From sequence record PZ019086.1: a DNA stretch of 64,000 nt, one strand, 5' to 3'. Under the pieces are notes generated by a model. The model had not been told where the DNA came from, did no database searches, and saw nothing but the letters and a program-made list of their open reading frames with translations. The translations under genes were made by a program, and so were the position numbers. How positions within the stretch are numbered: the stretch's first letter is position 1; every line of letters starts with the position of its first letter. Source of the stretch: a phage. Below, piece after piece: positions 19,548 to 39,265 of this stretch.

Positions 19548-19600
19548 AGTTGATAGTTGTATAGTACCACAGAGGAACAGTCTTGTAAACCACTAAAAGA
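19548..19600 (-). promoter_or_regulatory. T4-type early promoter
   Basis: Shared motif gttgatagttgtatagtacca...tgtaaac (plus strand) = GTTTACA / TACTAT on the minus strand. Confidence 0.5.
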
Positions 19601-19996: not shown

Positions 19997-20965
19997 TTAT
20001 TTCAGAAGAGTAACCTCAGCAATTTCTTCCCAACCGTTTTTGTCGGTCATAATAAAGTCAGCAAGATAAAGAGCAGTACGCAGTGAAACATTGCGTAAAC
20101 GGTTAACATTAACTTTCATCCATGATAATGCTTTATAAGTTTCTTCATCAGAAAGACCGCGCTTTTGCATCATATCAGTTGAAAGAATAACATCTTCAAC
20201 CCTGACCATAATTTCTTCATTAGTGTGAACACCCAAATCTAAATAAACTGAGCGGGACACTAATGCTTGTAAATGTGGAGCAAGTTTAGTACCACGGTCT
20301 AATTCGCGGTCAATGTCAACGTTTGTGATAAAAACAATCGTTCCTTTAAATTCAAACTCACGGTCAATGCCTTTTTCTTCTAAGTAAGAAGATGCAGTGC
20401 TCCAGCAGACTTTACGGGTCTCTCCAGTGTCCAGAGCAGCTTTTAGAAGATTAAGAATGTCCATATCAGAGAAAACATCCACATCATCAATCAAAAGGAC
20501 AGAATTCTCTTCACGATTATTCCAAAGCTGTTCATAAAGACCAATACCAGAGATTTTACCGTTAATGCTTTTATATTCAATGTATCCATTATCATTTGCT
20601 TTATTTAAAGCTTTATCTAAAGAATACGTTTTACCAATACCTGCTGCGCCAGAGATAATCAATGAACGAATATTTCCATTAATAATACCATTCGTCATCA
20701 TTCCCATAACATTAAATCTTTTATTAATGCGGGTTTTCATATCTTCATATGATTCTTTAACTTCTTCAACTTTTACACCATCATATGAAATATCTGATTT
20801 GTAAACCCAAACACCGCGACGTTTACCGTCAATTTCAACAAAAACTTTACCATCTCCTTGTGCATCTACCGGAGCATTATCTGGGAACCATTCGCCTAAG
20901 AGCTCAAAAGTTCCAGAGATTTCTTTACCGAAGTAGATACCCTTATTGATAGTTACAGTTTTCAT
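19997..20965 (-). CDS. P-loop NTPase (AAA-like ATPase)
   Basis: Walker A GAAGIGKT and Walker B VLLIDDVD; start placed at the ATG preceded by GGAGAATAAA (the listed ORF begins 18 nt upstream at GTG). Confidence 0.6.
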   Translation of the reverse strand: MKTVTINKGIYFGKEISGTFELLGEWFPDNAPVDAQGDGKVFVEIDGKRRGVWVYKSDISYDGVKVEEVKESYEDMKTRINKRFNVMGMMTNGIINGNIRSLIISGAAGIGKTYSLDKALNKANDNGYIEYKSINGKISGIGLYEQLWNNREENSVLLIDDVDVFSDMDILNLLKAALDTGETRKVCWSTASSYLEEKGIDREFEFKGTIVFITNVDIDRELDRGTKLAPHLQALVSRSVYLDLGVHTNEEIMVRVEDVILSTDMMQKRGLSDEETYKALSWMKVNVNRLRNVSLRTALYLADFIMTDKNGWEEIAEVTLLK

Positions 20966-20994
20966 TTTATTCTCCAATTTCACATTTGTTTTGA

Positions 20995-21045
20995 TAGGGT
21001 AATAGTATCACACTACTACCCTACTGTAAACAATTTATTTTAATG
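20995..21045 (-). promoter_or_regulatory. T4-type early promoter
   Basis: ttgatagggtaatagtatcac...tgtaaac motif. Confidence 0.45.
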
Positions 21046-21298
21046 TTCGCCAAATTTTTACTGCTTCGCGACGAGATACTTCTACAGCTCCAAGTTCTAC
21101 GGCTTTTTGGCGGCGGCGCGCGTGTAAGTCATAATGTTTAATGCGTTTATCTTGAAACCAAGAGCGTTTCATTCCTATTGCTTCTGCCATTTCATGAAGC
21201 TCTTCAATATCTCCATCAGTGAACATATGACAATTTTTAGTTGGATGACCGCGAAGTTTCCATCCATGATTCATTAAAACATCTACGTAAACTGTCAT
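21035..21298 (-). CDS. Hypothetical basic protein
   Basis: 87-aa ORF; its ATG overlaps the stop of the upstream small ORF (ATGA). Confidence 0.5.
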   Translation of the reverse strand: MTVYVDVLMNHGWKLRGHPTKNCHMFTDGDIEELHEMAEAIGMKRSWFQDKRIKHYDLHARRRQKAVELGAVEVSRREAVKIWRTLK

Positions 21299-21444
21299 TG
21301 ATTCTGCTCCAAATATGTTTCTATAATTTTCTGAGCGAGATAAACTGCGTTATCTTCAGTTGCATCTTCTAAGAAATTTTCAAAACAAGCTGAAATCTCT
21401 TCTGTGTCAATCAACTTTTTTACTTCAATTAACGTAGTTTTCAT
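21297..21444 (-). CDS. Small acidic ORF (48 aa, below the ORF-track cutoff)
   Basis: Hand translation MKTTLIEVKKLIDTEEISACFENFLEDATEDNAVYLAQKIIETYLEQNQ; coupled to the next gene; lies downstream of a promoter motif. Confidence 0.4.
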
Positions 21445-21464
21445 TTTATTCCCCAAATCCACAT

Positions 21465-21535
21465 CAGTTGATAGTTGTATAGTACCATAAAGCTTTATGC
21501 TTGTAAACCGTTTTGTGAAAAAATTTTGAAATAAA
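21465..21535 (-). promoter_or_regulatory. T4-type early promoter
   Basis: cagttgatagttgtatagtaccat...tgtaaaccgttttgtgaaaaa. Confidence 0.5.
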
Positions 21536-21538
21536 AAA

Positions 21539-21556
21539 GGGAGCCCGAAGGCTCCC
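21539..21556 (-). terminator. Stem-loop with CGAA tetraloop
   Basis: gggagcccgaaggctccc palindrome after the stop of ORF 21559-22569. Confidence 0.4.
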
Positions 21557-21558
21557 TA

Positions 21559-22569
21559 TCATTTATAATAACTTCGATGGTTTTCAAGATAGACCTTCTC
21601 AAGGAAGTCATCCCAGAAACTCATGTCTACTTTTTGCTGCATACCGTTCTTAGAAGCTTCAGTAGATGCTGCTTCTACTTGATCGACCACATCTTCCAAA
21701 AACTCTTGAACAATTTTAAATGGATGTTTACCCAACTTCACGTCGAGAATAAATGGAGCGTCTTGAAGTGGATAGACTAAGTCACCAGTTTTGTAAATTT
21801 CCAATAGTTGAAGTCCACCACGACAAGCATGGCTCAGAGCTTTCCAGTCAATACCTTCGTTGGCTTCGGCCTTACGGGCACGTTCACCATATTCAGCATC
21901 TAATTTGTTCAGTGACTGCTTAAGCTCAATAAGAGAAAGCGTTGTCTGATATTTACGACCCAACACAGTGTAAAACGTTTGTGGACCTGTTTTCTCATGA
22001 TTATGGAACACCCATTCACAGAATTCGTTTTCTGGAAGACGATGCTTAATATCTTCAACTTTAGTACGACGCTGCTTAATGGAACCGTCTTCTTGGTAAT
22101 CAACCCATTGCTCAGGGATTTGATTAACTACTTTCAATACATCGCGTAATGCAGCCAAACGAGAACCCTTGACACCGTATTTAGAAGCTTGCTTGCGGAC
22201 ATATCCTAAATAGGATTTCATGTTAGTCGTATAAAAACGAGAACGATTGTCTTGAATAAACTTCCATACATCAGGCAAATCAGATTTAACCACTAGCTCG
22301 GGTGGAGTGTGGAGCATATCCAATGCTACAGTTTCACCATCTGCTGCTAATTTAAAGAAATACTTAAGACTGTATAGTTCATGGTCAATATCATCTTTAG
22401 TGTTTTTAGATGATGTGTTGTTAGTGTTTTTACTCATATGCTCTTTAACATTTCCGATAAGAATATCGCGAGCAGGAGGAACAAAGATTTCTTTAAAATC
22501 TACATCAGATTCTGGAGTAGAAGTTCCATAAAGATGACTACCAAAATAAGACTTAACTACAGTTTTCAT
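21559..22569 (-). CDS. Putative nucleotidyltransferase-fold protein (minimal Pol-beta-like NTase motif at the N-terminus)
   Basis: 336 aa; N-terminal FGSHLYGTSTPESDVDF fits the GS-x(9-13)-DxD nucleotidyltransferase signature. Confidence 0.35.
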   Translation of the reverse strand: MKTVVKSYFGSHLYGTSTPESDVDFKEIFVPPARDILIGNVKEHMSKNTNNTSSKNTKDDIDHELYSLKYFFKLAADGETVALDMLHTPPELVVKSDLPDVWKFIQDNRSRFYTTNMKSYLGYVRKQASKYGVKGSRLAALRDVLKVVNQIPEQWVDYQEDGSIKQRRTKVEDIKHRLPENEFCEWVFHNHEKTGPQTFYTVLGRKYQTTLSLIELKQSLNKLDAEYGERARKAEANEGIDWKALSHACRGGLQLLEIYKTGDLVYPLQDAPFILDVKLGKHPFKIVQEFLEDVVDQVEAASTEASKNGMQQKVDMSFWDDFLEKVYLENHRSYYK

Positions 22570-23030
22570 TATTTATCCTTATATTCAATAACAGGACATA
22601 CTTTAGCTTTACTCGCTTTTAAAAATTCGACGATAATAGATTTCTTGGGTTGAATAGGAGGTAAACCTTTATACGCCCTATCAATATTTTCTACATGTAA
22701 AGCATAATCCTTTTTCCATTTATAATCTTTATATTTTTCACGCAGTTGTACAGGAATAACAAATGAACCAATAATAAGTAAAACAAGCAAAATGACAAGT
22801 ACAAATGCTGATGGAATAAGAGTCCATAAACTACCAAAAATAAGCCATTTCTGTATGATTTCTGCACAGATGATAGTTAGACCTGCGAGTACAGTACATC
22901 CGAAAAAAGAAACGAAAAATGTAGGGATAACAATAGACCAAAAGTATGCACATAGTGTCTTAGGTCGTTTCCATTCATCATTAAACATTTTGAATAATTT
23001 ATAATGCCAAGAGTTTTCATTAATAATCAT
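22569..23030 (-). CDS. Membrane protein
   Basis: 153 aa; two long hydrophobic segments. Confidence 0.55.
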   Translation of the reverse strand: MIINENSWHYKLFKMFNDEWKRPKTLCAYFWSIVIPTFFVSFFGCTVLAGLTIICAEIIQKWLIFGSLWTLIPSAFVLVILLVLLIIGSFVIPVQLREKYKDYKWKKDYALHVENIDRAYKGLPPIQPKKSIIVEFLKASKAKVCPVIEYKDK

Positions 23031-23032
23031 AA

Positions 23033-23554
23033 TTATCCTTTCATTGAAGGTGTAACAGTTGTTAAATACTTAATCATAGCTTCAGCTTCTGATTTTGATA
23101 ATGAAATTTCTCCATTGTTTTGACGAATAGAAATAAAATCCGGATGACGGTCACCACCAGCTTTTAAAACACACATGTAAGTATCAACTTCGCCTTCAAT
23201 ATTTGAAATGATTGAAGCAGTTCCACATGAATGTGGTTGTTGATAAACTAATACAGCTTTTCTTCCACCGTTTGACTGTTCATAAACTTTTAACACATCA
23301 AACAAATCACTTCTTTTATCAATAGCTAAGATGTTGTTTTCATCTTCAATGTTAAATCCTTCGGATATTTCATAAAGTGTCACCCATAAATCGCCAATAT
23401 CAATGACAGCATTCACCTTTCCATGATTTTCAAGAGCATTACAAATTTTCTTAATTTCATCATAACTCATTTTAATAATATCATCTCCTTGAATAAAGAA
23501 GATGTCATTTTTAAATTCAACGCGAATTAAACCACTTTCACTTGAAATAAACAT
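23033..23554 (-). CDS. Hypothetical protein (paralog of the next ORF)
   Basis: 173 aa; shares GFNIE and C-terminal YLTTVTPSMKG with the neighbour's YLDSVIPTMISK. Confidence 0.55.
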   Translation of the reverse strand: MFISSESGLIRVEFKNDIFFIQGDDIIKMSYDEIKKICNALENHGKVNAVIDIGDLWVTLYEISEGFNIEDENNILAIDKRSDLFDVLKVYEQSNGGRKAVLVYQQPHSCGTASIISNIEGEVDTYMCVLKAGGDRHPDFISIRQNNGEISLSKSEAEAMIKYLTTVTPSMKG

Positions 23555-23560
23555 ATTTCC

Positions 23561-24112
23561 TCACTTTGAAATCATAGTTGGAATGACAGAATCAAGATAA
23601 GTCTTTAATAAAACAGCTTCTTCTTTGTTTAATACAACAACATTAACATCATTTACCGATTGACGAATAGTTAAGACATCTCCCTCTTCATAGCATTTTG
23701 ATACATTTAAAACAGTTTCATAATTTTGATTACAAGCGTTAGTAATAATAGCATTGCAATTTTTAAACCATTTTAAACCATGTTTTCTTTCATTAGAATA
23801 ATAGAAATATTTAATCTTAGCTATAAAATTATCCCAATTATTAATTGATAAGCATATTGACTCGCTTTCAATATTAAATCCTGGGCATAAAGAATAAAAA
23901 TGAATTTTATGCTCATCATTAATGCTTACAATTTTATCAGTGTATGGTTTTTCAATTTGGGTTAAATGAATAATTTCGCTAGGCGTAAAATATAGCATAT
24001 CGTCTTCTTGCGTCAAACGATACATATTATTTACTTTTTCTATAGCCAATTCACCAAAAAGTGAACTAACTTCTAGTACTAATCGTTTCATATTAATCCT
24101 TTTTATTGGCAT
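23561..24112 (-). CDS. Hypothetical protein (paralog of the previous ORF)
   Basis: 183 aa; shared motifs as above. Confidence 0.55.
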   Translation of the reverse strand: MPIKRINMKRLVLEVSSLFGELAIEKVNNMYRLTQEDDMLYFTPSEIIHLTQIEKPYTDKIVSINDEHKIHFYSLCPGFNIESESICLSINNWDNFIAKIKYFYYSNERKHGLKWFKNCNAIITNACNQNYETVLNVSKCYEEGDVLTIRQSVNDVNVVVLNKEEAVLLKTYLDSVIPTMISK

Positions 24113-38344: not shown

Positions 38345-38420
38345 CTGGTCGAGGCAGTAGGGATCGAACCTACGACCTAGGACTTAGAAGGTCCTTGCTC
38401 TTCCTTCTGAGCTATGCCTC
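38345..38420 (-). tRNA. tRNA-Arg (anticodon UCU), CCA encoded
   Basis: Hand-folded cloverleaf; anticodon loop CTTCTAA; T-loop GGTTCGATCC. Confidence 0.8.
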
Positions 38421-38424
38421 GGAT

Positions 38425-38499
38425 TTGGCGGACGTGATAGGATTCGAACCTATAACCAATCGCTTAACAGGCGATCGCTCTGCCATTGAGCTACACATC
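38425..38499 (-). tRNA. tRNA-Asn (anticodon GUU), CCA encoded
   Basis: Acceptor GGATGTG/CACGTCC; anticodon stem ATCGC/GCGAT; loop CTGTTAA. Confidence 0.7.
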
Positions 38500-38503
38500 C
38501 AAA

Positions 38504-38590
38504 TTGGTGGGGAGTGATGGAGTCGAACCACCCGAGTCGCAATGACAATGGATTTACAGTCCACACCGCTACCTCTACGGGATAACTCCC
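38504..38590 (-). tRNA. tRNA-Tyr (anticodon GUA), long variable arm, CCA encoded
   Basis: Acceptor GGGGAGT/ACTCCCC; anticodon loop CTGTAAA; 87 nt. Confidence 0.7.
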
Positions 38591-38603
38591 CTTAATTCTT
38601 AAT

Positions 38604-38678
38604 TTGGTGGCCCTGGGTGGAATTGAACCACCATCTGGCGATTATGAGTCGCTTGCTTGAACCTTCCAGCTACAGGGC
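38604..38678 (-). tRNA. tRNA with anticodon CAU (Ile lysidine-type or elongator Met)
   Basis: Acceptor GGCCCTG/CAGGGCC; anticodon loop CTCATAA. Confidence 0.7.
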
Positions 38679-38679
38679 C

Positions 38680-38755
38680 TTGGTGCTGATTGACGGAATC
38701 GAACCGCCGACCTTCTCATTACAAGTGAGTTGCTCTACCTACTGAGCTAAATCAG
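38680..38755 (-). tRNA. tRNA-Thr (anticodon UGU)
   Basis: Acceptor GCTGATT/AATCAGC; anticodon loop CTTGTAA. Confidence 0.8.
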
Positions 38756-38760
38756 CAAAA

Positions 38761-38850
38761 CTGGCGGAGGCGATAGGATTCGAACCTATGAGTCGCTGGA
38801 GCGACTGCCGGTTTTCAAGACCGGTGCATTAAACCACTCTGCCACGCCTC
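38761..38850 (-). tRNA. tRNA-Ser (anticodon UGA), long variable arm
   Basis: Acceptor GGAGGCG/CGCCTCC; anticodon loop CTTGAAA; 90 nt. Confidence 0.8.
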
Positions 38851-38852
38851 CA

Positions 38853-38926
38853 GTCTCCGTGGCAGGATTTGAACCTGCGACATTCTGCTCCCAAAGCAGA
38901 CGCTCTACCAAACTGAGCTACACGGA
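38853..38926 (-). tRNA. tRNA-Pro (anticodon UGG), CCA not encoded
   Basis: Acceptor CTCCGTG/CACGGAG; anticodon loop TTTGGGA; the next tRNA follows immediately with no CCA. Confidence 0.75.
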
Positions 38927-38936
38927 GTAAATTAAA

Positions 38937-39010
<74 letters not shown>

Positions 39011-39015
39011 CAAAT

Positions 39016-39102
39016 TTGGTGCGAGAAGTGGGACTCGAACCCACAAGGAAATCATTCCGCAGCATTTTAAGTGCTGTGCCTTTACCAATTTGACCATTCT
39101 CG
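39016..39102 (-). tRNA. tRNA-Leu (anticodon UAA), long variable arm
   Basis: Acceptor GCGAGAA/TTCTCGC; anticodon loop CTTAAAA; 87 nt. Confidence 0.8.
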
Positions 39103-39103
39103 C

Positions 39104-39176
39104 GCTGGGAATAAAGGACTCGAACCTTTGCATCTAGCAGTCAAAGTGCTATGCCTTACCAACTTGGCTAATTCCC
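39104..39176 (-). tRNA. tRNA-Gln (anticodon UUG), CCA not encoded
   Basis: Acceptor TGGGAAT/ATTCCCA; anticodon loop CTTTGAC. Confidence 0.75.
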
Positions 39177-39265
39177 AATTATTAACAAAGGCTCTCAAAC
39201 AAGAACCCTTGATGATAGAGGGGGTATTAATCAGTGCGATATAAGTTAATAATAACACATAATTC

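Follow-up and report, generated by a model that had tools for sequence, protein, structure and literature searches.

The gene at 21559..22569 (minus strand) of the phage DNA analysed here (64,000 nucleotides of record PZ019086.1, henceforth the window) is the ortholog of nrdC.11 of phage T4, a gene that is already known and annotated. Its product is, as judged from sequence homology, a predicted active nucleotidyltransferase of the DNA polymerase β (Pol-β) superfamily belonging to the RlaP family (PF10127), and it probably serves the T-even phages as an RNA nucleotidyltransferase that would add nucleotides to the 3'-OH of broken RNA before ligation. By analogy, restoration of nucleotides on damaged (t)RNA is the most likely role, given the RlaP membership of the protein, the repair-operon context of its cellular homologs and the biochemistry of characterised RlaP enzymes.

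The nrdC.11 gene and its surroundings in the window

The open reading frame, with its stop codon contained within the coordinates, specifies a product of 336 aa and 38.9 kDa that begins with MKTVVKSYFGSHLYGTSTPESDVDF. Its DNA matches 699 phage records, and over 1011 bases it is 96.6% identical to T4 nrdC.11, the gene that lies under the match, with mobD and nrdC.10 as flanks; the T4 gene also goes by the synonym tk.-11 and carries the label 'putative 38.9 kDa protein'. In T4 and in the window alike, nrdC.11 has nrdC.10 on one flank and the mobD/rI side on the other. Among protein clusters the nearest is that of phage T2, at 99% identity, and from the T4 and T2 matches the window is recognisable as a segment of a T-even (Tequatrovirus) genome spanning the nrdC-tk variable region. 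In comparison with T4T, the gene shows 35 base differences, which amount to 31 synonymous and 2 non-synonymous codon changes, and the two proteins differ at 2 amino acids. This ratio of codon changes indicates strong purifying selection on nrdC.11; since it is the minus-strand frame that displays it, the plus-strand ORFs running across the gene (e.g. 21577..21780) were taken as spurious. The coding sequence is defined by the ORF list, the nucleotide identity to T4, the codon changes and the matches to PF10127 and phrog_388. 'Thioredoxin' is a very frequent label for NrdC.11 and NrdC.10 orthologs in GenBank and UniRef, and 'HNH homing endonuclease' occurs once; the 'thioredoxin' label looks like an error spread from the nrdC prefix of the gene names.

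The ATG of nrdC.11 has one base in common with the stop codon of the 153-aa ORF that precedes it (22569..23030), a predicted membrane protein (phrog_944) that stands, within 22569-24112 (minus strand), in place of the mobD homing-endonuclease gene of T4, which is absent from the window. Further upstream are two tandem y05I/MobD.1-like paralogs (23033..23554 and 23561..24112, minus strand), both with the Pfam domains T4_y05I_N and T4_y05I_C, one more than T4 possesses. On the downstream side, a G+C-rich, intrinsic-terminator-like hairpin, AGGGAGCCTTCGGGCTCCCT followed by TTTTTATTTC (21538..21557, minus strand; an 8-pair stem with 6 G-C pairs in the terminator scan), starts one base past the nrdC.11 stop codon and leads into a run of T residues. 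Past this hairpin is an early-promoter-like site, TTTACA-17-TACTAT (21507..21479, minus strand). It is one of three copies with an upstream TG on this strand, the others being at 21030..21002 and 19589..19561, and they precede a 55-aa ORF, nrdC.10 and nrdC.8 respectively. In sequence these copies look like repeated T4-type early promoters that would divide the region into short transcription units.

The P-loop ATPase that the first-pass annotation had placed two genes away is real: it is the NrdC.10 ortholog (19997..20983, minus strand), with a Walker A motif GAAGIGKT at residue 112 and a Walker B-like VLLIDD at residue 162. Its Pfam matches to AAA and STAND-NTPase families are all sub-threshold, and NrdC.10 is found in 1312 phage records. 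Between the two genes lie the 55-aa ORF (21295..21462, minus strand; phrog_6888) and an 87-aa ORF (21035..21298, minus strand) coding for a DUF4031 protein (Pfam E=8e-22), which together constitute an insertion of about 460 bp relative to T4 (20977-21462). This pair occurs at the same place in 8 of 78 IMG/VR loci, and DUF4031 in 9 of the 78; DUF4031 is present in 337 phage records. As a functional lead the DUF4031 neighbour was checked and nothing was gained from it. Neither the ORF list nor Pfam revealed RNA-repair genes next to nrdC.11 in the window, and an Rfam scan of the window recovered ten tRNAs only, with no RNA element in or near the gene.

The RlaP signature and predicted architecture of NrdC.11

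The starting point for a nucleotidyltransferase assignment had been an N-terminal Gly-Ser followed by DxD about 11 residues later, and the motif is present as described: G10-S11, D22 and D24, with 11 residues from S11 to D22, all within the segment FGSHLYGTSTPESDVDF (residues 9-25; 22495..22545, minus strand). By itself this motif is weak evidence, not beyond chance: in shuffles of the 97 ORFs of the window, 0.37 chance occurrences are expected for the strict pattern hG[GS]x9-13Dh[DE]h and 4.7 for a loose form. It is homology that makes the call solid. A Pfam search, as had been proposed, matched the protein to PF10127 (RlaP, 'RNA repair pathway DNA polymerase beta family') with a score of 43.7 bits, the curated cut-off being 23 (E=3.6e-11), and with residues 7-134 aligned to profile positions 24-142 of 249, i.e. 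the N-terminal half of the model only; at E<=0.01 no other Pfam family was found. All close homologs have a precomputed PF10127 hit, and the PHROGs search returned phrog_388, 'nucleotidyltransferase', at 1.2e-135, while searches of NCBIfam and PADLOC gave no match. An exhaustive HMMER search recovered 3370 clusters at 50% identity, 824 of them at E<=1e-30, and full-length alignment of the homologs extends to identities as low as about 34%.

In an alignment of 67 diverse homologs (34-55% identity), G10, S11, S21, D22, D24, N56, D62, Y131, R230, K243, R250 and K278 are invariant, and D60, D84 and H247 are conserved in at least 90%. Profile comparison by hhalign with 11 canonical RlaP proteins of 255 aa yielded a probability of 94% over residues 2-129, with the GS, D22, D24 and D62 of NrdC.11 aligned to S/G, D37, D39 and D73, all of which are invariant in the canonical group. 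NrdC.11 thus possesses the three conserved catalytic aspartates and the Pol-β G-S characteristic of RlaP, the predicted third carboxylate being D62 (codon 22384..22386, minus strand), which is on the modelled β-strand 61-67. For the C-terminal half, hhalign found no profile similarity to canonical RlaP; a K-x3-[HY]-x2-R motif common to NrdC.11 and the canonical RlaP consensus was discarded as an unsupported conjecture.

The AlphaFold2 model built on the 67-sequence alignment (mean pLDDT 94.4, pTM 0.82) displays an α/β core, with strands at residues 2-9, 23-30, 44-48 and 61-67, and a long helix at 118-150. Three regions can be delineated in it. The predicted Pol-β-type nucleotidyltransferase core occupies residues 1 to about 115 (22225..22569, minus strand), where the putative catalytic D22, D24 and D62 are placed. 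A β-rich insert follows at residues about 151-212 (21934..22119, minus strand; modelled strands 154-158, 164-168, 184-191, 195-202 and 205-208), and it is the most variable segment of the family, with a gappy 67-homolog alignment. The C-terminal helical domain, residues 213-336 (21562..21933, minus strand), is delimited by conservation and by modelled helices at 213-235, 242-261, 271-278, 284-307 and 316-335; it contains the invariant R230, K243, R250 and K278, the near-invariant H247 and the motif DWKAxSHAxR. The best structural neighbours of the model are Pol-β-type nucleotidyltransferases only. Many phage 'nucleotidyltransferases' of 230-290 aa in BFVD align over the whole of NrdC.11 at 11-17% identity, with target-normalised TM-scores of 0.54-0.74, which suggests that these shorter proteins and the modelled NrdC.11 have a common two-domain layout, interrupted in NrdC.11 by the insert. 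The fold proposed in the first-pass annotation is hence corroborated by the Pfam and PHROG matches, the conserved catalytic residues, the confident model and its structural neighbours, and the acidic residues on which that proposal hinged are invariant in the 67 homologs.

The characterised enzymes closest to NrdC.11 are the Pseudomonas RlaPs (PfRlaP and PaRlaP), which share PF10127 and the aligned GS, DxD and third Asp, and whose N-terminal nucleotidyltransferase and C-terminal helical domains may correspond to the core and the helical C-terminal region of the NrdC.11 model, the C-terminal halves being without hhalign signal. NrdC.11 differs from them in its length (336 as against about 255 aa), in its extra β insert, in a C-terminal half that is not profile-alignable, and in its position in the family network, where it belongs to cluster 5 and the Pseudomonas proteins to cluster 1a (PMC12776372). 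Sequence searches of the PDB with NrdC.11, its profile and the canonical RlaP profile found no match in a copy that apparently did not include the PfRlaP structure. Similarity to other enzymes is confined to remote structural likeness. Hailong HalB (PDB 9dbh), a 217-aa defence-system enzyme that makes oligodeoxyadenylate, is 16% identical over the core only, and its C-terminal domain and genomic context are unlike those of NrdC.11. The kanamycin nucleotidyltransferase ANT(4'), LinB and the nucleotidyltransferase-like protein 3c18, small-molecule enzymes to which Pfam gives NrdC.11 no match, are 8-10% identical with TM-scores of 0.24-0.38. Class II CCA-adding enzymes are also of the Pol-β superfamily and, in a manner analogous to that envisaged for NrdC.11, add nucleotides to RNA 3' ends without a template, but they have other body domains and their Pfam domains are unmatched in NrdC.11.

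Genomic contexts and alternative functions

A scan of one genome per prokaryotic species identified 156 NrdC.11 relatives, of which 80 loci, bacterial and archaeal, were examined; the proteins they encode are 33-54% identical to NrdC.11 over its full length. Neighbouring genes were classed by clustering, Pfam and phmmer, with 6 kb as the limit for association. RtcB, Pnkp, Ro60 or canonical RlaP was found within this distance, often directly adjacent, in 24 of the 80 loci, a large enrichment given that each of these repair genes is typically present at most once per genome. A canonical RlaP paralog accompanies the NrdC.11-like gene in 14 of the 80 (immediately downstream in 12), Pnkp (kinase-phosphatase-ligase) in 6 (directly upstream in 5), RtcB in 6 and Ro60/TROVE-vWA in 4. 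Among the more elaborate arrangements is that of Nitrosospira (locus L038, 1555-12057), with the gene order Ro60, RtcB, RtcA, NrdC.11-like, RlaP, Hen1, MoxR-type AAA and vWA/metallopeptidase; another locus (L055, 3338-8277) has Pnkp, NrdC.11-like, RlaP and Macro. A further bacterial locus (L079, 1770-4895) likewise has the two types in tandem, the canonical RlaP being of 255 aa. The neighbourhood of RNA ligase and repair genes that typifies RlaP is therefore seen around the full-length cellular homologs and not in the phage window, and relatives of both the Pseudomonas RlaPs and NrdC.11 lie in RtcB or Pnkp operons. Because the two types so often stand side by side in bacteria, NrdC.11-like and canonical RlaP proteins do not appear to be equivalent, and their co-occurrence in one operon suggests, at the level of gene order, a division of labour.

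In phages the NrdC.11 type is found in 1520 records, mostly T4-like, as against just 86 for canonical RlaP, which are largely genomes above about 250 kb and include no Escherichia phages. In 36 of 78 IMG/VR loci nrdC.10 is downstream of nrdC.11, as it is in T4 and in the window, and one of the bacterial repair operons, L038, holds an AAA ATPase of the MoxR type. These observations would fit an obligate two-component system in which the ATPase loads or regulates the transferase. We regard such a system as very unlikely. NrdC.10 is nearby only where the viral NrdC.11 shares about 51% identity or more with the query, the two genes are anywhere from 0.1 to 3.3 kb apart with unrelated inserts between them, and in the window they are separated by the terminator-like hairpin and a distinct promoter-like site. 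Their record counts are unequal (1520 for NrdC.11 and 1312 for NrdC.10 overall; 286 and 149 in Klebsiella phages), and neither NrdC.10 nor any other neighbour of the gene in the window has a relative in the 80 cellular loci. On this comparison of loci, the adjacency is best described as inherited synteny of close relatives in a variable region and not as a conserved functional pair; the terminator, the cellular loci and the viral loci led us to reject a functional pairing as unsupported.

Three other functions had to be weighed against end addition on broken RNA, two of which, along with nucleic-acid end modification, had been listed in the first-pass annotation. One was tRNA 3'-end repair, in which NrdC.11 would act as a phage CCA-adding enzyme. 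The ten-gene tRNA cluster of the window (38346-39177, minus strand) comprises Arg, Asn, Tyr, Met/Ile(CAU), Thr, Ser, Pro, Gly, Leu and Gln, against the eight tRNAs described for T4. As had been observed, tRNA-Pro (38853..38927) and tRNA-Gln (39104..39177) have no complete encoded CCA, which the other eight carry; these include tRNA-Ser, in contrast to the T4 Pro-Ser precursor, where CCA is absent from both tRNAs (PMC11143913). Full-length tRNAs do serve RlaP enzymes as substrates in vitro, with labelling at the 3'-OH (PMC12776372). T4, however, possesses nrdC.11 and still needs the host tRNA nucleotidyltransferase for pre-tRNA processing (PMC11143913; also Deutscher, Foulds and McClain 1974, as cited in PMC6468291), and this dependence leaves the link to the CCA-less tRNAs unsupported. 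Moreover, the characterised RlaP discriminates little among NTPs and adds no more than 1-2 nucleotides, the cellular homologs of NrdC.11 adjoin RNA ligases and healing enzymes and not tRNA genes, and the PolyA_pol head and body domains of class II CCA-adding enzymes and poly(A) polymerases are lacking, with Pfam detecting RlaP only and NCBIfam nothing. A CCA-adding role consequently appears extremely improbable.

Synthesis or manipulation of nucleotide signals (oligonucleotide or cyclic messengers, or decoys) against host defence, in the manner of HalB or CD-NTases, draws on the resemblance to HalB, which covers the generic nucleotidyltransferase core alone. Among models of known defence proteins, PADLOC finds no counterpart of NrdC.11, and the cellular homologs keep the company of RNA-repair genes and not of effector or sensor genes; we give this possibility little credence. 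[quoted passage not shown] Structural scores for such transferases are low, and helical bundles match non-specifically. NrdC.11 has neither an NTP_transf_2-type Pfam domain nor a partner or fused HEPN domain, and the Rx4-6H motif of the latter is absent among the residues conserved in the 67 homologs. The operon partners of its homologs are RNA ligases and RNA end-healing enzymes, and the characterised RlaP leaves proteins unlabelled (PMC12776372). For signal synthesis and for protein or small-molecule nucleotidylylation alike, the basis in sequence and model is the generic similarity of the core fold. Nucleic-acid end modification, in the form of RNA 3'-end addition, is thus the part of the earlier list that we would retain, on grounds of RlaP membership, the repair operons of cellular homologs and, by analogy, RlaP biochemistry (PMC12776372); CCA repair and signal manipulation are not supported.

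A predicted role at the 3' ends of broken RNA

The repair of tRNA by T4, in which Pnkp and Rnl1 counter PrrC, is the founding example of RNA repair. RlaP was reportedly named, and a repair role predicted for it, before 2021. Nolan et al. 2006 had already recognised a match of nrdC.11 to the nucleotidyltransferase domain COG3541 and one of nrdC.10 to AAA ATPases (PMC1524935). Among the RNA-end-restoring nucleotidyltransferases of jumbo phages, RlaP is the most prevalent according to Iyer et al. 2021, who report a prediction that, ahead of ligation, it replaces the nucleotides that enzymes such as RloC have removed (PMC7824862). Carruthers, Fatma and Huang (bioRxiv, Dec 2025; PMC12776372) then reported the extension of RNA 3'-OH ends by one or two NMP (or dNMP) with two RlaP enzymes from Pseudomonas; these enzymes prefer Mn2+, favour the broken end of the anticodon loop in a mimic of cleaved tRNA, and are inactive on DNA and protein. 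In the crystal structure of PfRlaP an N-terminal nucleotidyltransferase domain is joined to a C-terminal helical domain, the last helix of which packs back on the former, and the same study explicitly places 'T4NrdC.11' in cluster 5 of the RlaP family network (PMC12776372). The activity of Pseudomonas RlaP, taken together with the family membership of T4 NrdC.11, makes the restoration of nucleotides on damaged (t)RNA before ligation the likely role.

In the mechanism that we propose, D22, D24 and D62 would hold two divalent metal ions, probably Mn2+, which would bind the NTP and activate the 3'-OH at the RNA break. The RNA would be accommodated in a cleft to which the β insert and the helical C-terminal domain, the latter bearing conserved R/K residues, would both contribute, and one or two nucleotides would be added independently of a template. 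During infection, cleaved tRNAs of the host or the phage would in this way regain the nucleotides trimmed from them, for instance the wobble base excised by RloC-type anticodon nucleases, after which phage Pnkp and RNA ligases would reseal a functional tRNA. What we infer in this scheme is that the subfamily acts on RNA, how many nucleotides it adds, and its in vivo target or anti-nuclease role in the phage. Several observations count against it. The nrdC.11-mobD.3 segment was among those deletable in a T4 genome-reduction study, and under laboratory conditions T4 stays viable without nrdC.11 (PMC9825161); RloC is reportedly absent from E. coli (PMC3014915). Further, nrdC.11 in the window is not adjacent to RNA-repair genes, and the C-terminal half, the expected substrate binder, is without profile similarity to canonical RlaP and carries an insert of about 60 residues.

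The tandem occurrence of the two types in bacteria and the non-alignable C-terminal half imply that the specificity of NrdC.11 may differ from that of canonical RlaP. We tentatively put forward, as a possibility short of an even chance, that the NrdC.11 type is a distinct RlaP subfamily and, in T-even phages, the missing third step of Pnkp-Rnl1 tRNA repair, rebuilding the nucleotide excised by RloC. The traits that may set this subfamily apart are, in the model, its extra β insert and its divergent substrate-binding half. The family assignment of NrdC.11 and the idea of a repair function have already been published, so that the analysis of the window confirms an annotation and introduces no new object; what it highlights is the structural divergence of the phage NrdC.11 subfamily in the substrate-binding half. 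Whether there are phages that repair the RloC lesion is a question raised in a review of T4 (PMC3014915), and an NrdC.11 with this role would, if the proposal is true, provide the answer. A phage enzyme restoring excised nucleotides would extend the tRNA-repair arms race of T4 to RloC-type nucleases.
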